Shown here one piece after another: positions 2,852-33,887 of a DNA stretch of 33,887 bases. The stretch is from the NCBI GenBank assembly GCA_017528675.1, contig JAFXOO010000142.1:1-33887 (forward strand), written 5' to 3'. The stretch is from Oscillospiraceae bacterium. Lineage in GTDB: Bacteria > Bacillota > Clostridia > Oscillospirales > Ruminococcaceae. Below the pieces are notes generated by a model, which saw nothing but the letters and a program-made list of their open reading frames with translations, was not told the origin of the DNA and ran no database searches. The translations under genes were made by a program, and so were the position numbers. Within the stretch, counting starts at the first letter, position 1, and the number at the start of each line of letters is the position of its first letter.

Positions 2852-2856
2852 AAAAG

Positions 2857-2877
2857 CCCCTCCCCGATGGGGAGGGG
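2857..2877. terminator. Hairpin CCCCTCCCC-GAT-GGGGAGGGG between convergent genes
   Basis: Perfect 9-bp stem between stop 2849-2851 (+) and stop 2887-2889 (-). The same 21 nt form hairpin H3 of the interspersed element at 19367-19387. Confidence 0.55.
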
Positions 2878-2886
2878 GGTCTGCTG

Positions 2887-8157: not shown

Positions 8158-8460
8158 ATATATCCTTATCCGCTACAGGCGTATGAGAGATTTATGATCG
8201 GAATTTATGGCAGTATCGCCTTAAATGATAGACAGAAGCCGGGAACCGGCTTCTTACTTAGCGCCGCCGGAATATGACGGCAGAACCAGAGCAACTGTAT
8301 GCAGACGATCTAACCTTGCTCCTGAATTGTACGCAGAAGCCCCGCCGCTGCGGGATTCTGCCTGAGAGCCACTGCGTGTGGCTCTGTTTTCCTGTGCCCC
8401 AAGCTGCTGCTGACGACTTAGCCGGGGATCCGGAGCAGGACGGTGTGCTGCTGCTTTTGC
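8158..8460 (+). promoter_or_regulatory. Long (~300 nt) structured 5' leader, or independent small transcript, upstream of rnj
   Basis: No convincing ORF. Contains hairpin GAAGCCGG-GAA-CCGGCTTC + TTACTT (8236-8260), hairpin AGAGCCAC-TGCGT-GTGGCTCT + GTTTT (8365-8390) and CTG-rich segments that could pair alternatively with GAGCAG (8431-8436). Confidence 0.35.
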
Positions 8461-10317
8461 ATGCGTGAAAAGAGAGGTATTGTATTGAATAATCAGAATC
8501 ACAACGGAGGAGATCCCAAGAGAAAGCGTTACGTCATCCACCGGGCAAAGGGCAAGAGCCAGAAGCCGGCGATCAAGAAGCCCATGCCGCCGGCACATGC
8601 ACAGCAGCCTGTCCGCCAGCAGATGCAGGCGCCGAGGAGCCGTGCCCATGAACAGCACCGCACACCCGTGCGCATCATCCCACTGGGCGGCCTGAACGAG
8701 ATCGGCAAGAATATGACCGTGTTCGAGTGTGCAAATGACATGTTCATCCTCGACTGCGGCCTTGCGTTCCCGGATGCCGAAATGCCCGGCGTGGATATTG
8801 TCATCCCGGACTTCACCTATGTGGAACGCAACAAGGAAAAGCTGCGGGGCATCGTCATCACCCACGGACATGAGGACCATATCGGCGGTCTTGCGTATCT
8901 GCTGAAGAAGGTCAATGCTCCCGTCTATGGCTCCGCCATGACCATCGGCCTGATCAAGCACAAGCTTGAGGAGCATGGGCTTCTGAACAAGGTGAGCCTG
9001 AACGTGATCGAATCCCGCAAGACGGTGAAGATGGGCTGCATGGCCGTGGAATTCATCAAGGTCAACCATTCCATTCCCGGCTCAATGGGTATGGCAATCC
9101 ATACACCGGCCGGCATTCTCGTGCATACCGGCGACTTCAAGGTGGACTATACCCCCATCGACGGCGGCCCGATTGACCTTGCCCGCTTCGGTGAGCTGGG
9201 CAGCAGGGGTGTCCTGGCGCTCATGGCGGATTCCACCAATGCCGAGCGTCCGGGCTATACGCAGTCTGAGCGCAAGGTGGGCGATTCCTTCGAGAAGCTC
9301 TTTGTCAAGGCAGGCAACCGCCGCATCATCATTGCAACGTTCTCCTCGAATATCCACCGTGTGCAGCAGATTGTGAATATGGCTGCCAAGAACGGGCGGA
9401 AGATTGCCGTGCTCGGCAGAAGCATGATCAATGTCATCACCACGGCGCTGGAGCTGGGGTATCTTGATGTACCGAAGAACACCATCATCGACATCGAGAA
9501 CATGAACCAGTATCCGCCGGAGCAGATCGTGCTCATCACGACCGGCAGCCAGGGCGAGCCGATGTCGGCGCTCACCCGTATGGCAATGCATGACCACAAG
9601 AAGGTCAACATCACCCCGATGGACTTCATCATCATCTCGGCAACGCCCATTCCCGGCAACGAGAAGCATGTGACCAAGGTTGTCAACGAGCTGCTCAAGT
9701 CCGGTGCAGAGGTTATCTACGAGTCCATGTATGAAGTACATGTCTCCGGCCACGCCTGCCAGGAGGAGCTCAAGCTCATGCTGGCACTCGTGAAGCCGAA
9801 ATTCTATATCCCCATGCACGGCGAATACAAGCATCTGGTCAAGAATCGTACACTGGCACTGGAAATGGGCATCCCGAAGGAGAATGTCCTCCTTGCCTCC
9901 ATCGGAAATGTCATCGAAACGGACGGCACCAAGCTCCAGGTCGTTTCACAGGCACCGGCAGGCAGGGTTCTGGTGGACGGTCTTGGCGTCGGAGATGTCG
10001 GCTCGATTGTGCTGCGTGACAGAAAGCACCTGGCAGAGGACGGCCTGATTATCATTGTGGTCGGCATCACCCGTGCCACCGGCGAGGTGGTATCCGGGCC
10101 GGATATCATTTCGAGAGGCTTTGTCTATGTACGGGAAGCCGAGGAACTGATGGAGCAGGCAAAGCAGCTTCTGTGCCATACGCTTGCCGAGTGCAGCGTC
10201 TATGAGCTCAAGGAGTGGGTGCCGCTGAAGGGCAAGCTCCGGGATGCACTGTCCGACTTCATCTTTGAGCAGACCAAGCGCAGCCCGATGATTCTTCCGA
10301 TCATCATGGAAGTCTGA
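8461..10317 (+). CDS. rnj: Ribonuclease J (metallo-beta-lactamase / beta-CASP family)
   Basis: VRIIPLGGLNEIGKNM, ITHGHEDHIGG and the beta-CASP and C-terminal domains are all recognisable. Start is uncertain: ATG 8461 has no RBS, while in-frame TTG 8485 is 7 nt after GAGAGG. The ORF-track GTG 8443 is unlikely. Confidence 0.9.
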   Translation: MREKRGIVLNNQNHNGGDPKRKRYVIHRAKGKSQKPAIKKPMPPAHAQQPVRQQMQAPRSRAHEQHRTPVRIIPLGGLNEIGKNMTVFECANDMFILDCGLAFPDAEMPGVDIVIPDFTYVERNKEKLRGIVITHGHEDHIGGLAYLLKKVNAPVYGSAMTIGLIKHKLEEHGLLNKVSLNVIESRKTVKMGCMAVEFIKVNHSIPGSMGMAIHTPAGILVHTGDFKVDYTPIDGGPIDLARFGELGSRGVLALMADSTNAERPGYTQSERKVGDSFEKLFVKAGNRRIIIATFSSNIHRVQQIVNMAAKNGRKIAVLGRSMINVITTALELGYLDVPKNTIIDIENMNQYPPEQIVLITTGSQGEPMSALTRMAMHDHKKVNITPMDFIIISATPIPGNEKHVTKVVNELLKSGAEVIYESMYEVHVSGHACQEELKLMLALVKPKFYIPMHGEYKHLVKNRTLALEMGIPKENVLLASIGNVIETDGTKLQVVSQAPAGRVLVDGLGVGDVGSIVLRDRKHLAEDGLIIIVVGITRATGEVVSGPDIISRGFVYVREAEELMEQAKQLLCHTLAECSVYELKEWVPLKGKLRDALSDFIFEQTKRSPMILPIIMEV

Positions 10318-10370
10318 GAAAAGACTGCTTGGTATAGACAATAGTTCGACAACAGTCAGGGGGTGGGGGA

Positions 10371-12326
10371 TTGAAACCAAAACAGCATGCCAGAATATGG
10401 ATTCTTGCGTTTTTGCTGATACTTTCTGTACTGCTGCCTTCAGCAATGCTGTACTGGCGGGGAGATTCCCTCGGCTTCCTGTACTGCATTCCGGGCGCAG
10501 TGAGCGTCGGCATCGGCGTATGTATGCTGCTTTACACCAGGCGCAACCAGCTCAACTATATTGCAGAGCTCAATGAGATCAGCGAAAATGCCCAGCTTGC
10601 GGCACTACAGCAGCTCCCGTTCGGCTTCTGCGTCATTGATGCGAAAGGCATCGTGGTGGAGTATAACCAGAGCTTCCGGGATGAAATCATGGACGGCGAG
10701 GACATGTTCGGCAGGAATCTGCTGGAGCGGATTCTGTTCAAGCCCTCTGATGCAGAACAGATCGTGACCTGGAAGAAGCGGCATTACCGGCTCTCGTCGC
10801 TTCCGTTTGAAGACGAGAACGGCAGGAAGCTGACCACGGTGCTCTGGGAGGACCGGACAGAGCTTGAAAGCCTGCGGGATACTTATCGGAAAACCCGCCC
10901 CTGTGTGGTACTGCTCGTGATTGATAATTACGAGGATATGATTCAGAACATCAAGGAGAGCGACCGCCTTGCAACCGGCGTTTCGATCGAAAAGCTCATG
11001 GAGAGCTTTGTGGCGGATACCGGCGGTATTCTGCGGCGGCTGAAGAATGACCGCTTCATTGCTGTTCTGGAGGACCAGTATATGCAGCAGATCGTGGCAG
11101 AGAAGTTCCCGATTCTCGATGCTGCCCGGCAGATTCTGATGGGCGGCCGTGACACCGTGACGCTTTCCATCGGCGTCGGGCAGGGCGGCGATACGCTTCA
11201 GGAATGTGAACAGCTCGCCCAGCAGAGCCTTGAAATGGCGCTCGGACGGGGCGGCGATCAGGCTGCGCTCAAGAAAAAGAACGAGGACTTTGAGTTCTTT
11301 GGCGGCAAGTCGCAGGGCATCGAAAAGAAATCCCGTGTCAAGACCCGTGCAGCGGCAAAAATGATCCGGGAACAGATTCAGAGCAGCCGGAAGGTCTTCC
11401 TGATGGGACACCGCTACGGCGACCTTGATTCCATCGGCGGATGCTGCGGCCTTGCCGGTGCAATCCGGATTATGGATAAGCCGGTGCGGGTGGTGTGCGA
11501 CCCGAAAAAGAACCTCTCCCAGCAGCTCATTGCCCTTGTGAAGGACGAGATTGGCGCATCCCTGTTCCTGACACCGGAACAGGCAGTGGATGCCATCACG
11601 GACGACACGCTGCTTATCATCGTGGATACCAATAACAAGGACATCATCGAAAGCCCGGAGCTGTACCAGCGTGCCAAGCGTGTGGTTGTCATTGACCACC
11701 ACCGGCAGAGCGTGAATTATGTGGACAACGCAGTGCCCTTTTATCATGAGCCGTTTGCGTCCTCTGCCTGCGAAATGATTACGGAGCTGTTGCAGTATTT
11801 CCAGCTCACCAGCGATCTGGATCCGGTGCTTGCGGAGTGCCTTCTGGCGGGCATTATGCTCGACACCAAGAATTTCGTTATGCGCACGGGTGTGCGTACC
11901 TTTGAGGCTGCGGCCTACCTCAGAAAGCTCAAGGCGGATACCATCCGTGTCAAGGGGCTGTTCTCCGGGTCGATTGATGCCTACCGCAGCCGCACCGAGA
12001 TTGTGAGTTCGGCGGAGATTTTCGGGCGGTTTGCCATCGCCCTCGTTCCGGAAAACACGCCGGATGTGCGGATTGTGGCGTCGCAGGCAGCGGATGAACT
12101 GCTGAACATCACCGGCGTGGATGCGTCGTTCACCATCTGTAAAGTCAAGGGGAAGGACGAAGAAGTCAATATCTCCGCCCGTTCCTATGGTGATGTCAAT
12201 GTACAGGTCATTATGGAACAGCTTGGCGGCGGCGGCCACCAGTCAATGGCGGCAACACAGATCTCCGGCATCACTCCGGAGGAAGCAAAACAGCGGTTGA
12301 TTGCCGTGCTGAGAGAAACGGAATAG
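10371..12326 (+). CDS. gdpP: GdpP-type cyclic-di-AMP phosphodiesterase (2 TM, PAS-like, degenerate GGDEF, DHH/DHHA1)
   Basis: Two N-terminal TM helices. DHH motifs are [26 protein letters not shown] and [11 protein letters not shown]. It occupies the classic position immediately upstream of rplI-dnaB. The start is TTG 10371, after a G-rich RBS. Confidence 0.85.
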
Positions 12327-12351
12327 CCGCATACGGAAAGGATGCATTCAC

Positions 12352-12798
12352 ATGAAGGTTATTTTTTTACAGGATGTCAAGGGCTCCGGCAAGAAGGGCG
12401 AGCTCAAGGAGGTTTCTGACGGCTACGCACGCAATATGCTCCTGAAGAAGGGGCTTGCCGTGGAGGCAACACCGGAGAATCTCAACAAGCTCCAGGGTGC
12501 CCAGGCCTCTGCACAGCACAAGATTGATGTGGAGAAGGCGGCTGCCGAGGAAAACCGCACAAAGCTCCACGACAAAAAGGTCGTCATCAAGGCAAAAGCC
12601 GGCACCGGCGGCCGTCTGTTCGGCTCCGTGACGGCGGCGAACATCGCACAGGCGATTTCCGAGCAGTTCGGCGTGCAGCTCGATAAGAAGAAGATTACGC
12701 TGAAGTCCGATATCAAGGCATTTGGCACGTTCTCTGCCGAGATCCGGCTGTACACCGGCATTTCTGCCACGGTGACGGTTGAGGTGGAGGAAGCATAA
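12352..12798 (+). CDS. rplI: 50S ribosomal protein L9
   Basis: [36 protein letters not shown] is a canonical L9 N-terminus; 148 aa. Confidence 0.95.
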
Positions 12799-12811
12799 AT
12801 CAGATCAGACC

Positions 12812-12840
12812 GGGCGGTTTCCCCGTGAAGCCGCCCTTTT
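12812..12840 (+). terminator. Putative intrinsic terminator after rplI
   Basis: GGGCGG ... CCGCCC stem (6 bp, 13-nt loop) followed by TTTT. Confidence 0.45.
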
Positions 12841-12870
12841 GCCATCTGTAGACCCGGTAGGAGGGAATTC

Positions 12871-13806
12871 ATGAAAAAGGCATTGAAGATCATCGGCATT
12901 GTGATTGCCGTCATTCTGATTCTGGAAATTCTGGCGGTGCTGGGATGCATCTGCTATCACAGGTTCATGCTGTCAAAGGAGAAGCCCCTCGTGGAAACGC
13001 CGCTTGGTCAGCTTGTTGAGGTGGACGGCCATAACATGAGCATCTATACCGAGGGCAAGGGGGCGCATACGCTCGTCTTTCTCTCCGGATGGGGTGTGGC
13101 ATCTCCGATTCTCGATTTCCGGAGCCTGTACAGCAAGCTCACGGATGAGTACCGGATTGTCGTGATCGAGAAATTCGGCTACGGATTCAGCGATGATGTG
13201 GACAGTGAGCGTTCCTTCGACACCATCCTCCGGCAGGACAGGGAAGCCCTCTCCAAGGCCGGCATCGAAGGCCCCTATATTCTCTGTCCGCACTCGCTCT
13301 CCGGACTTGAGGCGCTGTACTGGGCGCAGAGCTATCCCGATGAGGTGGAAGCCGTCGTGGGGCTGGATATGTCGCTGCCGCCGAACTGTGATGAGGCAGA
13401 TCAGGCGGAAATGAAGGACAGCTACCTGCTCAACAAGTGGTTCAACCGGCTCGGATTCTTCCGGATGATGAATGTTGACGGGATGATAGATGCCCTGCAT
13501 GCCGGTACGCTGACGGACGAGGAGAAGGCGATCTACCGGGCGCTGATCTATGCAAACACCGGCAATGCCGCCCCCGGCAATGAGACGGCTGATACCGTAC
13601 ATATCGCAGAGGTCATTGAAAGCAGTCCGGCACCGGACATCCCGATGCTGCTGTTCATCATGGACAAGAAGACGGAGGCGCAGACCTACGCTTCCGGAAC
13701 CCTCGGCGCAAAAGTCATCCCGCTTGACTGCGGGCATTATGTCCATATTCTCAAAACAGATACCGTCAGCGAGGAAATGCGGACGTTTATCGGAAACCTG
13801 AGCTGA
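12871..13806 (+). CDS. Membrane-anchored alpha/beta-fold hydrolase
   Basis: N-terminal TM helix (IIGIVIAVILILEILAVLG), HTLVFLSGWG oxyanion-type block, nucleophile elbow PHSLSG and a C-terminal GHYVH histidine region. Confidence 0.75.
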   Translation: MKKALKIIGIVIAVILILEILAVLGCICYHRFMLSKEKPLVETPLGQLVEVDGHNMSIYTEGKGAHTLVFLSGWGVASPILDFRSLYSKLTDEYRIVVIEKFGYGFSDDVDSERSFDTILRQDREALSKAGIEGPYILCPHSLSGLEALYWAQSYPDEVEAVVGLDMSLPPNCDEADQAEMKDSYLLNKWFNRLGFFRMMNVDGMIDALHAGTLTDEEKAIYRALIYANTGNAAPGNETADTVHIAEVIESSPAPDIPMLLFIMDKKTEAQTYASGTLGAKVIPLDCGHYVHILKTDTVSEEMRTFIGNLS

Positions 13807-13827
13807 TACACAGAGGAGGAAACTGCA

Positions 13828-15177
13828 ATGGCAGAGAATACCAGCTTCAATGATATTGAAATGCCCTACAGCCTTGAGGCAGAGCAGACTGTCCTCGGCG
13901 CCATTCTCATCGAGCAGGATGTGCTGTCCGTTGTACTGGAGCATGTCAAGCCGGAATGCTTCTTCATCGACCAGCACCGTGCCCTGTTCACGATCATGGT
14001 GCAGATGTTCACAAGCGGCGAAAAGGCCGACGTTGTGACAGTGCTCAATGCTGCCACGGCGGCGCATATCTTTGAAACGGCACAGGAGGGACGCAATTAC
14101 CTAGCGAACCTTGTCAATATGGTGCCGACAGTGTCCAATATCGAAAGCTACTGCAACATCGTTGTCAATAAATACTATATCCGCTCCCTTGCGGAAACGG
14201 CAAGGAGCATCCTCTCCGACATCCAGAGCGGCGAGACCGATGCAGCTTTGCTCCTCGATGCCGCAGAACAGCGCATCTATGACATCCGCCAGGGCAGAGC
14301 CACCACGGGTCTGACACCCATCCGTGAGGTTGTGGCGGAGACCTATAATCACATCGGCCAGATTGCCGGCCCCGACCGGGAGCAGTACCTCGGCATCCGT
14401 TCGGGCTTCTCGTATCTGGATGCGGTGACATCCGGTCTGAACAAGTCAGACCTCATCCTGATTGCCGCCCGTCCTGCGATGGGTAAGACGGCGTTTGCGC
14501 TGAACATCGCCCAGAATGTGGCGGCACACAATCCGGACAAGGAGGTCTGCATCTTCTCGCTCGAAATGCCTCGCCAGCAGCTTGTGTCCAGACTGTTGTC
14601 GTCGTCGGCGCAGGTTGATTCCAATAAGCTCCGCAACGGCCGCCTGACCGGAGATGACTGGGTGCGGCTGGCAACGGGTGCGAGCTATCTGAATGATCTG
14701 CCCATCTATATTGACGATACGGCAAGCATTACCGTGCAGCAGATCAAGGCGAAGCTGCGCCGGATGAAGAACCTCGGCCTTGTGGTGATCGACTACCTCG
14801 GCCTGATCCAGACAACACTCCGGACGGAAAACCGTGTGCAGATTGTCTCCGAAATTACCCGCCAGCTCAAGATCATGGCCAAGGAGCTGGATGTGCCGGT
14901 CATCCTCCTGTCACAGCTTTCGAGAGGCCCCGAAAGCCGTACCGACAAGCGCCCGATGCTTTCGGATCTGCGTGAATCCGGTTCTATCGAGCAGGATGCG
15001 GATATTGTCATGTTCCTCTACCGTGATGCGTACTATAACAAGGACAACGCCAACCAGAATGTTGCGGAATGCATCGTTGCCAAGAACCGCCACGGCGAGA
15101 CCGGCACGATCAACCTGAACTGGGACGGTCAGTTTACCCGCTTCACCACCCTCGAAAAGACCGATGCGCCCGCTTGA
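13828..15177 (+). CDS. dnaB: Replicative DNA helicase DnaB
   Basis: N-terminal PYSLEAEQTVLGAIL, Walker A AARPAMGKTAFALN, Walker B VVIDYLGL and LSQLSRGPE..RPMLSDLRESGSIEQDADIV. Confidence 0.95.
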   Translation: MAENTSFNDIEMPYSLEAEQTVLGAILIEQDVLSVVLEHVKPECFFIDQHRALFTIMVQMFTSGEKADVVTVLNAATAAHIFETAQEGRNYLANLVNMVPTVSNIESYCNIVVNKYYIRSLAETARSILSDIQSGETDAALLLDAAEQRIYDIRQGRATTGLTPIREVVAETYNHIGQIAGPDREQYLGIRSGFSYLDAVTSGLNKSDLILIAARPAMGKTAFALNIAQNVAAHNPDKEVCIFSLEMPRQQLVSRLLSSSAQVDSNKLRNGRLTGDDWVRLATGASYLNDLPIYIDDTASITVQQIKAKLRRMKNLGLVVIDYLGLIQTTLRTENRVQIVSEITRQLKIMAKELDVPVILLSQLSRGPESRTDKRPMLSDLRESGSIEQDADIVMFLYRDAYYNKDNANQNVAECIVAKNRHGETGTINLNWDGQFTRFTTLEKTDAPA

Positions 15178-16489
15178 CGCCGTCCGGCGCTTCCTGCGGG
15201 TACACGATATCCGGGACACCGCCGTCACAGCGGCTCTTTCCGGCGGTGCGGACAGCGTATGCCTGCTGCACTGTCTGCGGGCATGCCGTGAGGCATTCGG
15301 GCTGCGGCTCTCTGCCATCCATGTGCAGCACGGGCTGCGGGGCGAGGAGAGCCTGCGGGATGAGCAGTTCTGCCGGACGCTCTGCACAGCGTGGGAGATT
15401 CCGCTGACCGTGGTTCCCGTTCAGGTGCCGCAGCACACAGGAAGCCTTGAGGCAGCGGCACGGGAATGCCGCTATGCCGCCTTTGCGGCGCATGCAGACG
15501 GCTATGTGGCAACAGCGCACACTGCCTCGGACAATTTCGAGACGATGCTGTTCCGGCTCGTGAGGGGGACGGGGCTGAAGGGGCTTGCCGGTATTCCGCC
15601 GGTGCGGGAGCGTTACCTGCGGCCGCTGCTGCAAGTGAGCCGAGCCGAAGTGGAGCAGTATCTCCGGGATCAGGACATCGGCTATGTGACGGATTCCACG
15701 AATCTGACGGATGATTATGCCAGAAATTTCCTGCGGCATCAGGCGGTGCCGCTTCTGCAAAAGCAGAACCCGGCGCTCGAACAGTCCGCCGCAGAGACCG
15801 CCGACATCCTCCGCACAGAGGAGGATTACCTCGCACAGGCGGCGGAGGCTGCCTATGCACAGGCCCGTCAGCCGGACGGCTCGCTCCGTGGGCTGCGGAT
15901 GCTGCATCCGGCATTGCAGCGGCGCTGCATCCGGCGCTTTCTGGCAGAGAATGCCGTTCCGGCGGGCTATTCGCAGGTGACTGCCGTGCAGGAGCTCCTC
16001 GAAAGCGGCGGCCGCCTGGAAATGGAACGGGGCGGTGTGTGGATCTGCGTCAGCCGTGGCATACTCTTTCCGGAACGTCCCCGGACGGCTGAGACACTGC
16101 TTCGTATCGGAAAAAACTGCCTGTATCCGGGCACTTTTGTCGAGGCTGCGTTGATTCTGCGGGAGGATACCGACAAATTCACAAGTGTTCACAAAAAATT
16201 CACAGATTTTGCGCTGGATTATGATATAATAAGAGGGTGTGCAAGACTGCACAGCCGGCAGCCCGGTCTGCGGATGATTCCGGCAGGCAGAAGCCATCAC
16301 GTTTCTGTCAAGAAATGGCTGAACGAAACTGTTCCTCCGCAGAAACGCCAGAGGATTCACTACCTGTCCGATGACAGCGGCCTGCTCTGGGCAGAGGGAC
16401 TCGGCCCGGCAGCACATGCAGCGGTGACAGCGCAGACAAGACGGATGCTGGTGCTGTATGTTCACGAGTCTGACACACAATGCACATGA
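15164..16489 (+). CDS. tilS: tRNA(Ile)-lysidine synthetase
   Basis: PP-loop SGGADS in ALSGGADSVCLLH, then ATAHTASDNFETMLFRLVRGTG. Overlaps dnaB by 14 nt and lies upstream of ftsH, as in many Firmicutes. Confidence 0.9.
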   Translation: MRPLDAVRRFLRVHDIRDTAVTAALSGGADSVCLLHCLRACREAFGLRLSAIHVQHGLRGEESLRDEQFCRTLCTAWEIPLTVVPVQVPQHTGSLEAAARECRYAAFAAHADGYVATAHTASDNFETMLFRLVRGTGLKGLAGIPPVRERYLRPLLQVSRAEVEQYLRDQDIGYVTDSTNLTDDYARNFLRHQAVPLLQKQNPALEQSAAETADILRTEEDYLAQAAEAAYAQARQPDGSLRGLRMLHPALQRRCIRRFLAENAVPAGYSQVTAVQELLESGGRLEMERGGVWICVSRGILFPERPRTAETLLRIGKNCLYPGTFVEAALILREDTDKFTSVHKKFTDFALDYDIIRGCARLHSRQPGLRMIPAGRSHHVSVKKWLNETVPPQKRQRIHYLSDDSGLLWAEGLGPAAHAAVTAQTRRMLVLYVHESDTQCT

Positions 16490-16583
16490 GCCCGACACAT
16501 ACATGATGTATACTAAGGCATCAATTAGCAGTCAGAGAGAAAGAGTGCTAATTCGTGAGCCATAAAGAAAAGGAGTGGATGAG

Positions 16584-18548
16584 TTGACACCAAAAAGAAG
16601 CAGAGGCATTGTTGCATATCTCCTCGTAGCGGCAGTTCTGATCTTCCTGGCGGTATTCATGCTGCCGAGACTGAACGAGAAGAAGTCCGAGTACACCTAT
16701 TCAGAGATTATGCAGCATTTCGACAACCTTGAGGTGACGAAGTACACCCTCGACCTCGGCAGCGGCGAGCTGAAGATGACGCTTGAGAACGAGGAGGAAA
16801 TCACCTATACTGTGCCGAATGTGTCGATCTTCAAGGAGGAGACTGAGGGCTACCGGCTGCGCTATAACCGTGCGCACCCGAAAACGCCGCTCGATCAGGA
16901 TTATTTCAAGATCACTGACAATTCCTGGATCATCACCTATATCCCGACCTTCATCATCCTGATTATGGGCATTGTGCTCTTTATCTTCATGATGCGCCAG
17001 GCGGGCGGCGGCAAGTATAACAACTTCGGCAAGGCCAATATCAAGGCACAGGCCTCCAATAAGAAGGCGACCTTCGACGATGTGGCTGGTGCCGAGGAAG
17101 AAAAGTACGAGATGGCGGAGATTGTGGATTTCCTGCGGAATCCCCGGAAATACGCCGAAATTGGCGCCCGTATCCCGAAGGGCGTGCTGCTTCTCGGCCC
17201 TCCCGGAACCGGTAAGACGCTCCTTGCCAGAGCTGTCGCAGGCGAGGCAGGATGCCCGTTCTACCCGATTTCCGGCTCGGATTTCGTGGAAATGTTCGTC
17301 GGTGTCGGCGCATCCAGAGTGCGTGACCTGTTTGAGACTGCCAAGAAGAATGCGCCCTCCATCGTGTTCATCGACGAGATTGATGCCGTCGGCAGACACC
17401 GTGGTGCCGGTCTTGGCGGCGGCCATGACGAGCGTGAGCAGACGCTGAACCAGCTTCTTGTAGAGATGGACGGCTTTGAGGCAAACGAGAGCGTGATTGT
17501 CATTGCGGCAACCAACCGCCGTGACATCCTGGATCCGGCACTGCTGCGTCCGGGACGTTTTGACCGCCAGATTGTGGTCGGCTATCCCGACATCAAGGGC
17601 AGAGAGGACATCCTCAAGGTGCATACCAAGAACAAGCCGCTTGCACCCGATGTCAACCTGCACGACATTGCCAGAACGACTGCCGGCTTCACCGGCGCCG
17701 ACCTGGAAAACCTGACCAATGAAGCGGCACTGCTTGCCGCAAGAGCGGACAGGAAGGCGATCACCAACAAGGACATTGCAGAGGCGACCATCAAGGTGGT
17801 TGCAGGCCCTGAGAAGAAGTCCCGTGTCAAGACGGAGCGTGAGATCAAGCTGACAGCCTACCATGAAGCCGGCCATGCCATCTGCACCTACTATTGCCCG
17901 CATCAGGATAAGGTACACGAGATCTCCATCATTCCGAGAGGCATGGCGGGCGGCTATACGCTGTCGCTGCCGGAGCATGACAAGAGCTATAACAGCAAGA
18001 CGGAGATGCACGAGGAGATCATCGTTCTGCTGGGCGGCCGTGTGGCAGAGCAGCTCATCATGGACGACATTTCCACGGGTGCATCGAATGACCTGGAGCG
18101 TGCTACCTCGATGGCACGGAATATGATTACCCGCTATGGCTTCAGCGAAAAGCTCGGTCCGGTGGTGTACGGTCATGACCAGAGCGAACCGTTCCTGGGC
18201 AGGGATTTCAGCAGTACGCCGAATTATTCCGATGAGGTTGCCGCCGAGATTGATGCGGAAATCCGCAACTTTGTGGAGGAAGGCTATACCAAGGCAGAGC
18301 AGATTCTGACCGAGCACATGGATCAGCTCCACAAGATTGCGCAGTACCTGATTGCCAACGAGAAGATCGACGGGCCGGAGTTCGAGCGCCTTATGAAGGG
18401 CGAGGACACCGAGCCGGAGATCACCGAGACAAAGCCGCAGCCGGCACAGGATTCTGCGATGGATGCCTACGCAAAGGATCTGCGTGAGCGCCAGGATGAG
18501 GCAGAGGATAAGCCTGTACAGATGGTACAGGACATGACGGAAGAATAA
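16584..18548 (+). CDS. ftsH: ATP-dependent zinc metalloprotease FtsH
   Basis: Two TM helices, Walker A GPPGTGKT, an SRH region and zinc motif HEAGHA. The ORF-track GTG 16575 overlaps the RBS AGGAG (16571-16575), so in-frame TTG 16584 (8-nt spacing) is the more plausible start. Confidence 0.93.
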
Positions 18549-19243: not shown

Positions 19244-19253
19244 ACTGATAAAA

Positions 19254-19282
19254 CTGCCCGCAGAATCCGTATCTGCGGGCAG
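19254..19282 (+). repeat. Terminator-like hairpin, left copy of a locus-specific direct repeat flanking element copy B
   Basis: CTGCCCGCAGA-ATCCGTA-TCTGCGGGCAG (11-bp stem). Repeated at 19450-19478 with one loop substitution. Confidence 0.85.
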
Positions 19283-19287
19283 TTAGT

Positions 19288-19448
19288 CTGTCAAAAAAAG
19301 CTGTTTTGCAGGGTTCGGGGCGGCAGCCCCGATCAGGGGCAGGGGGCGAAGCCCCCGCAATATAACCCCCTCCCCGATGGGGAGGGGGTTGGGGGTGGGG
19401 CGCCTCACGGTGCGCCAGCACCAGAAAATGGACTTTATTGACAAGCTG
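19288..19448 (+). repeat. Interspersed GC-rich multi-hairpin element, copy B (complete)
   Basis: Hairpins are H1 CGGGGC-GGCA-GCCCCG (19316-19331), H2 GGGGGC-GAA-GCCCCC (19342-19356), H3 CCCCCTCCCC-GAT-GGGGAGGGGG (19366-19388) and H4 GGTGC-GCCA-GCACC (19409-19422). Conserved unpaired segments are TTTTGCAGGGTT, GCAATATA and AGAAAATGGACTTTATTGACAAGCTG. Confidence 0.85.
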
Positions 19449-19449
19449 A

Positions 19450-19478
19450 CTGCCCGCAGAATCCGTTTCTGCGGGCAG
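19450..19478 (+). repeat. Terminator-like hairpin, right copy of the direct repeat flanking element copy B
   Basis: CTGCCCGCAGA-ATCCGTT-TCTGCGGGCAG, 196 bp after the left copy; followed by TCTGAACTTTTTT. Confidence 0.85.
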
Positions 19479-19501
19479 TCTGAACTTTTTTCAAAAAACA
19501 C

Positions 19502-19529
19502 TTGCATTAAAAGGATTATCTGCTATAAT
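19502..19529 (+). promoter_or_regulatory. purA promoter TTGCAT-16-TATAAT
   Basis: TTGCAT 19502-19507 and TATAAT 19524-19529, about 60 nt upstream of ATG 19591. Confidence 0.6.
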
Positions 19530-19590
19530 ATACATGTATGTCTTGGTAAAGCGCTAAGACGAAACAAACTATGAGAAAAGAGGAACATGC

Positions 19591-20871: not shown

Positions 20872-21178
20872 AGCGCCGGCAGACGCATGCCGGGGTTCGG
20901 CTATGGCGGCAGACCGGAACATGCGAACCGGGTGCGGTTGACAGCATGTGGTGCGTGCCTGTACCGGGAAGACGCATGCCGGGGTTCGGCTATGGCGGCA
21001 GACCGGAACATGCGAACCGGGCGCCGTTGACAGCATACGGTGCGTGCCAGTATCGGGCAGATGCATACCGGGGTTCGGCTATGGCGGCAGACCGGAACAT
21101 GCGAACCGGGTGCGGTTGACAGCATACGGTGCGTGCCTGTACCGGGCAGACGGCCGGGGTTCACATTGAGAACAGACC
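20872..21178 (+). repeat. Non-coding tandem repeat: three full 89-bp units plus one degenerate unit
   Basis: Units start at 20882, 20971 and 21060 (exact 89-bp period). By hand alignment the units differ at about 5-7 positions. A fourth, degenerate unit starts at 21149. The period is not a multiple of 3. Confidence 0.9.
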
Positions 21179-22520: not shown

Positions 22521-22569
22521 GCACTCACCGGTGCGCCGGCACCAGAAAAAGGACTTTATCGGCAATCTG
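22521..22569 (+). repeat. Solo 3' fragment of the interspersed element (copy E)
   Basis: GCACTCACCGGTGCGCCGGCACCAGAAAAAGGACTTTATCGGCAATCTG aligns with 58-106 of copy A with 4 substitutions. Contains hairpin H4 and the tail only. Confidence 0.8.
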
Positions 22570-22609
22570 AAGAAAATTGCACTGAAGTGTGCAATTTTCT
22601 TCTTTTTTT
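22569..22609 (+). terminator. Strong intrinsic terminator
   Basis: GAAGAAAATTGCAC-TGAAGT-GTGCAATTTTCTTC (14-bp perfect stem) followed by TTTTTTT. Confidence 0.85.
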
Positions 22610-25658: not shown

Positions 25659-25719
25659 ATGACTCTTCCTTTCGGTTTTGAAATAAATGGATGCCCCGCA
25701 CAAGCCGGGCAGTCATTAC

Positions 25720-25748
25720 TATTATAACCAATTATCCGGAAAATTGCA
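25720..25748 (-). promoter_or_regulatory. ackA promoter TTGCAA-17-TATAAT (minus strand)
   Basis: TTGCAA 25743-25748 (its own reverse complement) and ATTATA 25720-25725, which reads TATAAT on the minus strand. Confidence 0.6.
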
Positions 25749-25821
25749 AGTGTTTTTTCAAACATTTTACAATTCCGGTAAAAAAGAATGGATTGCACGC
25801 CGTGCAGAAAGGAGCAAAACC

Positions 25822-26802
25822 ATGAATAGGAAACCATTTCTTCCGCTTCTCCTCGTCCTCGCCCTGACGGGATGCAGCGCCGGGACGGAGAGCAGTACGC
25901 CTGCGGCAAACCCGGAGACCGAGCCGGTGACCACATCCGCAGCAGAGGAAACCTCCGGCCCGGAAACAGCCGGGACGGAACCGACAGACGCTCCGACCGA
26001 AGCGCCTACAGACGCTCCGACCGAGCCGCCCACAGAAGCCGCCGATCCGGAGGAGATTGCCTACCGCTTCCTCTCTGAGGAGCTGATCCCGGCAGATGGC
26101 CTGTCCGATCTCCAGCACTATCTTGCGATTGACTGGGAGTTGGCCTCCCCGACCTGCGGAGAGCTTGTGCCGCCGCAGTCCACCCAGGGCATCATCAGCG
26201 CAGCCGTGGAGGATTTCAGCGGTGACGGCGTACCGGAGCTGCTGACGGTTGTGTCGAGGGGCTATCGCATCGACCTGGATTTCTACACGATTGCAGATGA
26301 CACCTGCCGCATGATCGGCAGCTATTCGATTGAGAGCAGCCAGAGCGTGAATATCACCCCGGAAATCAGCATCAAGAACGGCAAAGTGATCGTGGAGTAC
26401 AGCTCCATGGCACTGCCCGGATGCAGCAGCTACGGCAATGCCTTCATCGCTCTTTCCGCCACGGATGGCGGCATCAACACGCTCTGTGAGCTTTCCGGCT
26501 TCCGTGTTCCCGGCTCTATGACGCTGAATGTAAACGGCTCCGTCAAGCTCGATGTGGCCGTGGATGAAATGGAGGATGACAACTCTCATCCGGATATTGA
26601 GCAGGCGGCCATGCAGTGCTTGCAGGATGCCGGTCTGGATCCGGTCAGCGTACAGGCAGGCTGGTCAGAGAGTATGGATCTGAGCTATGGCATTTACCCG
26701 CAGATCGAGGGAAAGACGAAACTCTTTGACACCACCTCTGATGAGGAGAGCAATGTCCGGTTCAATGACTATACCGGCCTGCGGGACAAGCTCGCACAGT
26801 GA
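25822..26802 (+). CDS. Lipoprotein of unknown function (paralog 1, one module)
   Basis: AAAGGAG RBS, ATG 25822, signal peptide with lipobox LALTGC, TE/AP-rich linker, then a module with EIAYRFLSEELIPADGLSD ... GIISAAVEDFSGDGVPELLTVV. The ORF-track start 25687 is trimmed. Confidence 0.8.
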   Translation: MNRKPFLPLLLVLALTGCSAGTESSTPAANPETEPVTTSAAEETSGPETAGTEPTDAPTEAPTDAPTEPPTEAADPEEIAYRFLSEELIPADGLSDLQHYLAIDWELASPTCGELVPPQSTQGIISAAVEDFSGDGVPELLTVVSRGYRIDLDFYTIADDTCRMIGSYSIESSQSVNITPEISIKNGKVIVEYSSMALPGCSSYGNAFIALSATDGGINTLCELSGFRVPGSMTLNVNGSVKLDVAVDEMEDDNSHPDIEQAAMQCLQDAGLDPVSVQAGWSESMDLSYGIYPQIEGKTKLFDTTSDEESNVRFNDYTGLRDKLAQ

Positions 26803-26836
26803 CCGCTGCCAGTATGCAGCAGAAAGGAGCAGGCCC

Positions 26837-28474
26837 ATGAAAATGAAACCATTTCTTCCGCTTCTCCTCGCCCTCGCCCTGACGGGATGCAGCGCCGGGA
26901 CGGAGCGCAGTACGCCGGATGCAGTGCCGGAGACTGTTCCCGTGGCCGATGTCACCGCCGGGGAGACTGCTGAGGTACCCGCTGTAACAGAAGCCCCCAC
27001 AGAGAAGCCCACAGCCCCGCCCTCCGAAGCCATGCGTTATCTCCAGGATGCGCTCGTCCCCCTCTATGGCCTGTCCGAACTCACGCCCTACAGCCCGAAG
27101 CAGGCGCCGCCCGCATCCGCACTGGGCATCCTCAGCGCCGTGGAGCAGGACTTCACCGGCGACGGCACGCCCGATCTGCTCATCGTCCGGCAGGATGAAA
27201 CAGCATGCCTCCTCGACCTTTACACACGCACCGGCGCAGACTATGATCTCGCTTACAGCTATACCTGCTGTTCGGCGGCAGATCAGCCCGCCGCACTGGT
27301 GCATCTCTCGCAGCAGGATGATCTGCTGCTTGTAAACGGCAGCGATGCCTTGCACAGGCGTTATGCTGTCCTCAGAGCCACAGACAGCGGTTTTGAAGAA
27401 ACAGCCGTGCTCGGATATGCCCGCAGTGAAGACTACAGCAATGTCAGCTATACGATCAACGATGTGCCGCAGGAGCTTAAAATGGATCAGCCCGGTGTCG
27501 AGGATCGTCTGAGCCCGTTCGGAGAGCTTGTAGCGCATTCCTGTGATGCCCTGCGCAGCGGCGGTGTCCGCATCCCGGAAACCGAGGCGCTGACGGACAT
27601 CAGCTATTCCTCTAACGCCATCCGCACTGTTTCCGGCATGATCCAGGAGCAGAAGGATATCTTCCGCCATGATTTATCTGATCGTTTCTCTGATGACAGT
27701 ACCGCCTTCGGCATCGACTTCACCGGTCTGCCAAGAGAACAGGCGGCAGACTCGCCGGAGAAAATCGCCCGCCGCTTTCTGCGCACTGAGCTGATCCCGG
27801 CCTGGGGGCTGTCGGATCCCGGCGCCACCTATGATCTGGCGTGGCATGAGGACAGGGGCATCGAGCCGGAGCTGCCCCACGATGCACAGGGCATCGTCGG
27901 TGCCTTCGTGCAGGACTTTGGCGGCACACCGGTGCTCCTGACCATCCGTGCAGAGCGTACCACGCTCGTCCTCGACAGCTACCGCATCGGGGATAACACC
28001 TGCACCCCGCTCGCAAGCCGGACGCTTCCGGGCTGTGCCACCCGGATCTACCGGCAGGGCGACCTGCTGCTGGCCGATCACTTCAGGAACGGGACAAATT
28101 CCTACACGGCAGAGCTGACCGCCCTGCGCCTGACCGCCGACGGCCTGGAGGATGTGCTGCATATCGTCCAGTCCGATACACCCGGCAAGGAGACGCTCCT
28201 GATCGACGGCGCCGAGGTCATGACGGCGGCCGATGTGCTCGACCCGGACAGCGTGAAAGGCACTGTGCAGGCAGCGCTCGGCAAAGCCGGTATCCGCTGC
28301 GAGGACGTTTCTTATCTGATCGCAAGCGAGCTGCCCTATGAGGCTTCCTGTGATATGCTCGTATTCACGCTTTCCGATGAGGACAGCATCCTGACACTCG
28401 GCGGCTTCGGCGCCTACCGGGATGTCTGGCTGGAAGACAAAACCGGTCTGCGTGCATGGCTGCGCCGCAGGTAG
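26837..28474 (+). CDS. Lipoprotein of unknown function (paralog 2, two modules)
   Basis: AAAGGAG RBS, ATG 26837 and the same signal peptide/lipobox. The module occurs twice (AMRYLQDALVPLYGLSE..GILSAVEQDFTGDGTPDLLIV and KIARRFLRTELIPAWGLSD..GIVGAFVQDFGGTPVLLTI). The ORF-track start 26687 is trimmed. Confidence 0.8.
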   Translation: MKMKPFLPLLLALALTGCSAGTERSTPDAVPETVPVADVTAGETAEVPAVTEAPTEKPTAPPSEAMRYLQDALVPLYGLSELTPYSPKQAPPASALGILSAVEQDFTGDGTPDLLIVRQDETACLLDLYTRTGADYDLAYSYTCCSAADQPAALVHLSQQDDLLLVNGSDALHRRYAVLRATDSGFEETAVLGYARSEDYSNVSYTINDVPQELKMDQPGVEDRLSPFGELVAHSCDALRSGGVRIPETEALTDISYSSNAIRTVSGMIQEQKDIFRHDLSDRFSDDSTAFGIDFTGLPREQAADSPEKIARRFLRTELIPAWGLSDPGATYDLAWHEDRGIEPELPHDAQGIVGAFVQDFGGTPVLLTIRAERTTLVLDSYRIGDNTCTPLASRTLPGCATRIYRQGDLLLADHFRNGTNSYTAELTALRLTADGLEDVLHIVQSDTPGKETLLIDGAEVMTAADVLDPDSVKGTVQAALGKAGIRCEDVSYLIASELPYEASCDMLVFTLSDEDSILTLGGFGAYRDVWLEDKTGLRAWLRRR

Positions 28475-33626: not shown

Positions 33627-33887
33627 AAAAAAGCAGACAACCTCCGGAACGGAGGCCTGTAAAAAACAATTTTTGCAGGGTTCGGGGCGGCAGCCCCGAT
33701 CAGGGTGCAGGGGCGAAGCCCCCGCAATATAGCCTCCCCTATCGGGGAAGGTGCCGCCGAATGGCGGCGGAGGGGGCGCTCTACGGTGCGCCGGCACCAG
33801 AAAAATGGTTTTGCTGACCCGAAAAAAGCAGACAACCTCCGGAACGGAGGCCTGTAAAAAACAATTTTTGCAGGGTTCGGGGCGGCA
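33627..33887 (+). repeat. Tandem 195-bp units, each a hairpin CCTCCG-GAA-CGGAGG plus interspersed element (copy C complete, copy D cut by window end)
   Basis: AAAAAAGCAGACAACCTCCGGAACGGAGGCCTGTAAAAAACAATTTTTGCAGGGTTCGGGGCGGCA occurs at 33627-33692 and again at 33822-33887 (offset 195). Core C (33657-33820) is collinear with copy B, but the G-run block is replaced by an extra hairpin GCCGCC-GAAT-GGCGGC (33753-33768). Confidence 0.85.

Follow-up and report, generated by a model that had tools for sequence, protein, structure and literature searches.

How does a compact, hairpin-rich core come to lie between two copies of a hairpin that looks like the transcription terminator of the upstream gene? 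The question is raised by a locus, here called locus B, on contig JAFXOO010000142.1 of an Oscillospiraceae bacterium, the whole of which (33,887 nucleotides [nt]) was analyzed and is referred to below as the window. An original prediction, made from the letters of the DNA, described a core of four hairpins between duplicated local hairpins and raised the possibility of a non-autonomous mobile element with terminator hairpins as its targets, duplicated on insertion. The features that it described were all found at the coordinates given. Empty sites in relatives and flanking duplications at 10/10 full copies support this proposal, and we consider it very probable that the core is an element, mobile now or recently, of this kind.

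At locus B, a 31-nt direct repeat (ACTGCCCGCAGAATCCGT[A/T]TCTGCGGGCAGT) occupies positions 19253-19283 and again 19449-19479 of the plus strand, with an offset of 196 bp; the two copies are identical at 30/31 positions, and the sole mismatch is a loop position. The left hairpin copy (12-bp stem, 7-nt loop), defined by comparison of the repeats and by the single orthologous hairpins in relatives, has no T-run and is fused directly to the 5' end of the element. The right copy retains a T-rich tail (19485-19492) and was scored as an intrinsic terminator. The complete element, copy B, fills the space between them, so that the bounds of the four-hairpin core are now set at 19284-19448 (165 nt, plus strand). 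It begins with a 5' terminal inverted repeat (TAGTCTGTCAAAAAAAGC, 19284-19301; consensus, CAGnCTGTCAAAAAAGC) that matches the reverse complement of the 3' end at 12/16 positions, followed by a conserved block (TTTTGCAGGGTT, 19304-19315), hairpins H1 (CGGGGC-GGCA-GCCCCG, 19316-19331) and H2 (GGGGGC-GAA-GCCCCC, 19342-19356), a second conserved block (GCAATATA, 19357-19364), H3 (ACCCCCTCCCC-GAT-GGGGAGGGGGT, 19365-19389), and H4 (GGCGC..GCGCC, 19399-19416). H4 has an alternative pairing, GGTGC-GCCA-GCACC (19409-19422), which is the 3' subterminal hairpin and opens the 3' module (19409-19448); there it is followed by AGAAAAnGGACTTTATYGACAAGCTG, which carries the 3' inverted repeat, and the last 19 nt of copy B read GGACTTTATTGACAAGCTG (19430-19448). 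All of these features lie on the plus strand. Folding of the locus gave z-scores of -10.8 (plus strand) and -8.8 (minus strand) against shuffled controls.

The flanking hairpin had been taken for the terminator of the upstream gene, and comparison with relatives bears this out. Orthologues of the 122-amino-acid gene upstream of copy B were found in a metagenome-assembled genome (MAG; 76% identity) and in another species (71%); in both, one homologous hairpin and a T-run come after the stop codon, with no element. A single hairpin is present at the sites orthologous to locus B in L009, L031, and L033, and no preexisting tandem pair was seen there. The arms of the window hairpin (ACTGCCCGCAGA..TCTGCGGGCAGT) correspond to ACTGTCCGC..GCGGGCAGT and ACTGCCTGC..GCGGGCAGT in the relatives, where the hairpin with its T-run reads ACTGTCCGC..GCGGGCAGTtgctttttt and ACTGCCTGC..GCGGGCAGTTTTCTTTTT, respectively. 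Thus, the hairpin at locus B is the native terminator, doubled only where the element is present. Every same-species contig checked for an empty B site was occupied or broken within the insertion. Besides, both relatives carry a ricin-lectin/dockerin gene (616 to 710 amino acids) between the 122-amino-acid gene and purA (L009:3860-5780 and L031:570-2990); the window species does not have it at this junction (19480-19590), which the element occupies.

The duplication is not peculiar to locus B. In all 10 full copies (10/10; loci B and D of the window and eight loci of the MAG), taken from independent assemblies (ENA, Logan, and the NCBI MAG) of two closely related species, the element is flanked by a direct repeat that covers a hairpin. 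The repeat is specific to each locus; as originally described, the core is constant and the duplicated hairpin local. Its length is 31 nt at B, 30 nt at D, about 27 nt at L001, 28 nt at both L002 and L007, 32-34 nt at L008, about 32 nt at L009, 37-45 nt at L010a, 19 nt at L010b, and 32 nt at L013b. At 10 independent loci, from the two species, locus-specific repeats of 19-48 nt stand precisely at the limits of the element, which excludes chance. At most loci the limits of the repeat fall 0-3 nt outside the stem feet on both sides, indicating that the duplication varies in length with hairpin size. The T-run occurs only after the hairpin copy that is not fused to the 5' end of the element, and it lies outside the repeat where it is on the 3' side of the element.

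Further loci in the two species show repeated and independent insertion. In the MAG, the glmS-feoB spacer (L013) contains two insertions, an old 3' remnant and a full copy, whereas in L042 it contains one hairpin and no element. L042 comes from the same sample as L036, a window-species contig that encodes a protein identical to that of the window, and L042 probably belongs to the window species as well. The glmS site of a close relative (L040) has another terminator and is uninformative as an exact empty site. At L008 and L013, where a second hit lies beside an old remnant, the new left boundary is at the same hairpin foot as the old one, as expected for a cut defined by structure. The terminator between a 385-amino-acid gene and the next gene is occupied in both species by differing elements: the window has a plus-oriented 3' remnant with one hairpin (copy C), and in the MAG a variant element of 250 nt, oriented the other way with respect to the genes, lies between two copies of the hairpin. 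The different subfamilies and opposite orientations imply independent hits on one orthologous terminator. Besides, the uniform plus orientation noted originally holds inside the window but not in the sister species, where this copy is inverted relative to the genes.

The element measures 113-250 nt, has no open reading frame (ORF), and is present in multiple dispersed copies. Terminal inverted repeats, which the original prediction did not mention, are present: the imperfect ends 5'-CAGnCTGTCAAAAAAG and CTTTATYGACAAGCTG-3' match at 12/16 positions at the exact termini (binomial estimate, p ~3e-5). The match of CAGTCTGTCAAAAAAG to the reverse complement CAGCTTGTCGATAAAG is conserved across copies and subfamilies, and a weaker end-to-end similarity reaches about 35 nt inward from each terminus. 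The termini themselves are CAG...CTG, with TGTC/GACA 5 nt inside, and TTGACA faces outward at both ends. Both ends have, about 30 nt inward and on the same strand, a tetraloop closed by a 5-bp stem (GGGGC-GGCA-GCCCC and GGTGC-GCCA-GCACC), and the stem pairs of the latter are unchanged in 11/11 aligned copies.

The interior is modular. H1 is missing in L002, an extra hairpin (GCCGCCGAAYGGCGGC) occurs in D, L002, and L012, L001 and L008 carry a 55-nt insert, and in L010b, a deletion derivative of 113 nt, nothing but the two end regions is left. The similarity of a second subfamily (L009, L005, and L008b) to the first is limited to some 15 nt at the 5' end and some 55 nt at the 3' end, the 3' module, which is the part common to both subfamilies and most remnants. 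Thus, the ends are the conserved part and are presumably recognized by a protein. H3 shows compensatory changes at pairs 145/159 and 146/158. It also matches, at 24/25 positions including the loop, a stand-alone bidirectional terminator hairpin between convergent genes of the window (2854-2879); this match, together with several targets of the CCCCTCCCC/GGGGAGGGG type, gives rise to the speculation that interior modules are captured target hairpins. Many terminators in these genomes are of the same type as the one at 2854-2879 (L002, L007, L013, and L042). Remnants are polar. The 3' remnants at C, L005, and L008b and the 5' remnant at L012:2800-2870 keep the end that abuts the T-run-bearing hairpin, with the T-run on the right in the former and on the left in the latter. 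That polarity follows the T-run fits selection for a functional terminator and argues against a 5'-truncating, RNA-mediated process.

We scanned a genome collection with the most conserved 20-mer, which lies in the 3' module. Only one other genome had the family, the uncultured Clostridia MAG CAMNDR01 (one GTDB species); the other five matches in the collection were chance matches in coding sequence, and all 10 matches (10/10) in metagenome contigs were due to chance. Viral contigs gave no match to the 3' module and one chance match to the 5' block. PurA is 96% identical between the window species and CAMNDR01 and the gene order is common, which makes CAMNDR01 a sister species. Its loci hold at least 12 family copies, as well as dockerin and cellulase genes. 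In 34 kb of contigs from close relatives (GlmS 94% and 86% identical), no copy was seen. Within the reach of the searches, the family is limited to a pair of sister species, cellulolytic and Oscillospiraceae-like (uncultured Clostridia of the gut or rumen). The core lies outside known families: BLAST found no match to the element in plasmids or phages, and Rfam gave no match in the whole window at gathering or relaxed thresholds, the best subthreshold matches being hairpin artifacts.

The window holds four to five family members in 34 kb, all on the plus strand. Copy A (1-128) has lost its 5' part at the contig start; its element portion spans 1-106 and is followed, as had been described, by a local hairpin of its own (108-128). 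Copy C (22524-22602) is a 3'-module remnant (22524-22569) adjoining a single native terminator (22569-22602). At locus D (33627-33887), a 30-nt repeat (AAAAAAGCAGACAACCTCCGGAACGGAGGC; 33627-33656 = 33822-33851) surrounds an element at 33653-33821, and a second copy starts at 33851-33887. The target at D is the long minus-strand terminator of a neighboring glycogen-synthase-like (glycosyltransferase) gene beyond the window, as seen in L036. In that other assembly (L036:2040-2200), one element copy is followed by the remainder of the terminator, so we read the extra 66 nt at the window end (33822-33887) as a second copy in tandem that only some genomes have, or perhaps as an assembly wrap-around. 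Thus, of the earlier description of locus D, the repeat around the element stands, but the 195-bp period reflects this second tandem copy, which is missing from the other assembly. The window is an entire contig and both of its ends fall inside element copies, which explains short-read assembly breaks at terminators in these Oscillospiraceae.

Taken with its size and lack of an ORF, the inverted repeats, the flanking duplication (atypical at 19-37(45) bp and coincident with the hairpin), and the insertion polymorphism with empty sites are those of a MITE, or miniature inverted-repeat transposable element. The element qualifies as a MITE on all tested criteria, and its partner enzyme is missing. 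We favor, as the probable origin, a MITE-like non-autonomous transposon inserted by staggered cuts at the hairpin feet. An enzyme encoded elsewhere and acting in trans would recognize the inverted repeats and the subterminal 5-bp/tetraloop hairpins and insert the element where an intrinsic terminator has its GC-rich palindrome. One break or strand transfer would take place on each strand, at or a few nucleotides from the respective foot of the palindrome; gap repair would then copy the entire hairpin to both sides, with a duplication length (about 19-37 bp) set by DNA structure. In an extruded cruciform the two feet would be adjacent in space, so that an ordinary short stagger could give a duplication as long as the hairpin. 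A stricter version, in which an integrase or transposase recognizes the extruded terminator palindrome itself and carries out strand transfers at both feet, the duplication being set by DNA shape and as long as the hairpin, is a tentative refinement that we think more doubtful than the staggered cut as such.

After insertion, only the hairpin copy beside the original T-run would stay a complete terminator, the other being fused to the element end; because of this fusion, the element is probably part of the 3' untranslated region (UTR) of the upstream gene. Repeated hits on one terminator would lead to tandem [hairpin][element][hairpin][element] arrays, decay would leave one end of the element joined to the hairpin that has the T-run, and target hairpins, once captured, could turn into interior modules. 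A simple tandem duplication of [element + hairpin] was rejected as a general origin, since it predicts [element][hairpin][element][hairpin] and not [hairpin][element][hairpin], and the empty sites are single.

Several observations weigh against a MITE-like transposon that duplicates terminator hairpins. The full copies number no more than about 10 and come from two species that are closely related. No transposase, integrase, reverse transcriptase (RT), HUH, or Cas1 domain was detected in either the window or the roughly 60 kb of MAG loci, in a Pfam search of 75 window and 44 MAG ORFs in which the listed families, the top 25, were all housekeeping ones and weak matches could be hidden; the original statement that the window has no transposase or integrase agrees with this, none of these and no RT being among the 25 best of 38 matched Pfam families (ORFs of at least 130 amino acids). 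Nor did the window or the MAG loci examined contain a cognate autonomous insertion sequence (IS) with matching inverted repeats. At locus D, the duplication, at 30 nt, differs in extent from the outer hairpin, which is 35 nt in full; AGGC(C)TGT is common to the target and the element end and leaves the junction ambiguous. Differences between the hairpin copies lie mostly in the loops (B, L002, L008, and L009); inversions were ruled out, as the reverse complements do not match, and this confinement suggests selection on both stems or some peculiarity of the mechanism. In L010a, the element is some 9-10 nt short at each terminus and shares microhomology with the target, a pattern that template switching fits better than clean transposition. 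Furthermore, an identical 29-nt terminator hairpin (TCCCCCGCAGGTGTCTCCTGCGGGGGATT) brackets a 987-bp segment in L010:2281-3324 (CAMNDR010000013) that has its own promoter and a type-IV-pilin-like gene (N terminus MKTRKNVKGFTLVELIVVIAIIGVLAAIL); the segment is not similar to the element and lacks inverted repeats. The MITE-like element may thus not be alone in duplicating hairpins on insertion.

These points keep alive a replication-based origin that needs no dedicated transposase, in which a polymerase at the terminator palindrome would switch template via microhomology to an element elsewhere, copy the element, return upstream of the palindrome, and copy the hairpin again. It would account for the truncated termini of L010a, with CTG(C/T)CA and CTTTATC microhomologies at the junctions, for the shared AGGC(C)TGT at locus D, for a bracketed pilin-like segment that has no inverted repeats, and for the failure to find a transposase in the window and MAG loci. 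However, the same end nucleotides (AGnCTGTC... ...GACAAGCTG) recur at 7-8 loci with no microhomology to the flanks, and the inverted repeats are conserved and are the sole parts common to both subfamilies, as for protein-binding ends. As a general origin we judge template switching unlikely, though ahead of the other alternatives; duplication templated by recombination, raised in the original prediction, may still apply to one atypical locus, L010a. Single-strand transposition by an HUH/Y1 enzyme, of the IS200/IS605-type palindrome-associated transposable element (PATE) or of a kind related to the tyrosine transposases associated with repetitive extragenic palindromic (REP) sequences (RAYT), acting on hairpins of the lagging-strand template, appears improbable. 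The window copies do share one orientation across 34 kb regardless of gene direction, similar same-strand hairpins (GGGGC-GGCA-GCCCC and GGTGC-GCCA-GCACC) lie near both ends, and the targets form hairpins, but such elements are without the target duplication and terminal inverted repeats that are present here. Besides, no conserved tetra- or pentanucleotide precedes the left end, the sister-species copy is inverted relative to syntenic genes, and no Y1/HUH gene was found in the window or MAG loci.

Two explanations center on RNA, and we give very little credence to either. A short interspersed element (SINE)-like element could spread by target-primed reverse transcription, with the 3' module as the RT recognition site, staggered nicks giving a variable duplication and incomplete cDNA synthesis giving 5' truncations. 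The variable duplication length, a 3' module common to two subfamilies with different bodies, and the several remnants consisting of a 3' end only agree with it. It does not agree with the 5' remnant that stands alone at L012:2800-2870, exactly where the T-run is on the 5' side, since polarity follows the functional terminator and not the 3' end of the element, and on this account target-primed reverse transcription with 5' truncation was set aside as the main model. Nor do the 3' remnants without an upstream hairpin copy agree with it, or the terminal inverted repeats, and no RT was found in the window or MAG loci; to our knowledge, target-primed SINE-like retrotransposition is not known in bacteria. 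The other explanation is a selected structured RNA or 3'-UTR module, an mRNA stabilizer or small RNA, that spreads by recombination and for which mobility is secondary. The very stable fold (z = -10.8), the compensatory changes that keep H3 paired, and the position between stop codon and terminator would suit such a module. It is hard to reconcile with interior modules that are dispensable (L010b and L002) while the ends are the conserved part, with the occurrence of the element in both orientations relative to genes, and with the lack of an Rfam match, and it leaves the hairpin duplications unexplained.

The window has other repeats as well. The purA/385-amino-acid gene spacer (20878-21152) contains three tandem 89-nt units, 91-95% identical, GC-rich and unrelated to the element; in the MAG, the same spacer has instead an inverted fragment of the variant subfamily (L009:2300-2345). 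A captured purA terminator in L009 was considered and discarded, as the purA-proximal hairpin is this inverted fragment. The first ORF (198-890) includes a 21-nt periodic repeat of five units (GAGCCGCCGACCCCCGACCCG; 285-410) that encodes a proline-rich stretch. Two adjacent, overlapping-frame ORFs (25687-26802 and 26687-28474) contain copies of a 129-nt segment (25804-25932 and 26819-26947; 86% identical, 1015 bp apart), with weaker repeats at 26077, 27047, and 27785, which suggests paralogous repeat-domain genes. Genes for DnaB helicase, ribosomal protein L9, GdpP, FtsH, TilS, and PurA lie within 8443-18545; in Firmicutes, these genes usually lie together near the replication origin. The window shows positive GC skew from 1 to 24 kb and slightly negative skew from 22.5 to 31.5 kb.

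In every well-studied transposon family, the enzyme leaves a target duplication of set, characteristic length. A duplication spanning an entire terminator hairpin, and varying in length with it, would, if true, point to target capture by DNA structure and to a possible natural system linking cruciform or hairpin geometry to the spacing of strand transfer; the unusual footprint suggests that the partner enzyme reads DNA shape rather than sequence. Such insertion would also be a simple route to long structured 3' UTRs, tandem terminators, and repeat arrays at bacterial 3' ends. We found no account of insertions duplicating a whole terminator hairpin in the open-access literature. Class C group II introns, ribozymes of about 2 kb that contain an RT ORF, home to intrinsic terminator stem-loops and insert downstream of them, and the hairpin is not duplicated. 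Our element resembles them as a mobile element homing to terminator stem-loops but differs in its 165-nt size, in having no match to intron models, and in duplicating the hairpin. REP sequences and bacterial interspersed mosaic elements (BIME) with RAYT are built on a 20-40-nt imperfect palindrome with a conserved tetranucleotide and accompanied by a RAYT gene, whereas here the unit is a 165-nt composite and the palindromes are locus specific; no Y1 gene was found among the listed Pfam matches of the window to support such an assignment. PATE of the IS200/IS605 type have neither inverted repeats nor duplication and insert 3' of a fixed tetra- or pentanucleotide, whereas both features are present here and the bases 5' of the left end vary.

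Structure can guide other enzymes to their targets. The RAG transposase prefers hairpin and cruciform targets (PMC1618415), and IS1397/ISKpn1 and ISPpu9/10 insert into REP palindromes (PMC8450116 and, in part, general knowledge). Like our element, these choose the target by secondary structure or extragenic palindrome and not by a linear consensus, but they insert at the hairpin tip or loop or at a fixed position with a short duplication or none, and none duplicates the entire palindrome. Members of the IS1202 group make target duplications of 16-28 bp, and no target structure has been found for them (PMC10132070). They have in common with our element imperfect inverted repeats, a duplication longer than 15 bp (here about 19-37 bp), and an internal TGTC...GACA near both ends; they are DDE-type elements with a TnsB-like transposase. 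Their very termini, 5'-TGT...ACA-3', differ from the CAG...CTG of our element, which moreover has a hairpin as its target.

Among MITEs, the pneumococcal BOX elements (boxA-boxB(n)-boxC) have modular interiors (PMC10969869 and PMC3049150). The likeness to these and other modular MITEs extends to small size, absence of an ORF, intergenic position, and multiple copies, to partly complementary conserved ends around variable internal hairpin modules, and to deletion derivatives, neighboring insertions, and a presumed trans-acting transposase. Known MITEs differ in their short, fixed, transposase-defined duplications of 2-10 bp, against a whole hairpin of variable length here, and our element has no sequence similarity to described families (Rfam, plasmid, and phage searches). 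The duplication itself is best paralleled by Cas1-Cas2 and casposon integration, which duplicates a whole 24-48-bp, often palindromic repeat (PMC4940900, PMC8390005, and PMC5137440). No cas1, casposase, or cas domain and no CRISPR array was seen in the window, as judged from its listed Pfam matches, and the comparison is an analogy of mechanism only. Within that analogy, attacks on opposite strands at the repeat borders followed by gap repair could yield the same outcome, and the tandem growth of [palindrome][insert][palindrome] resembles locus D, whereas at our loci it is the palindrome that varies from locus to locus and the insert that is constant.

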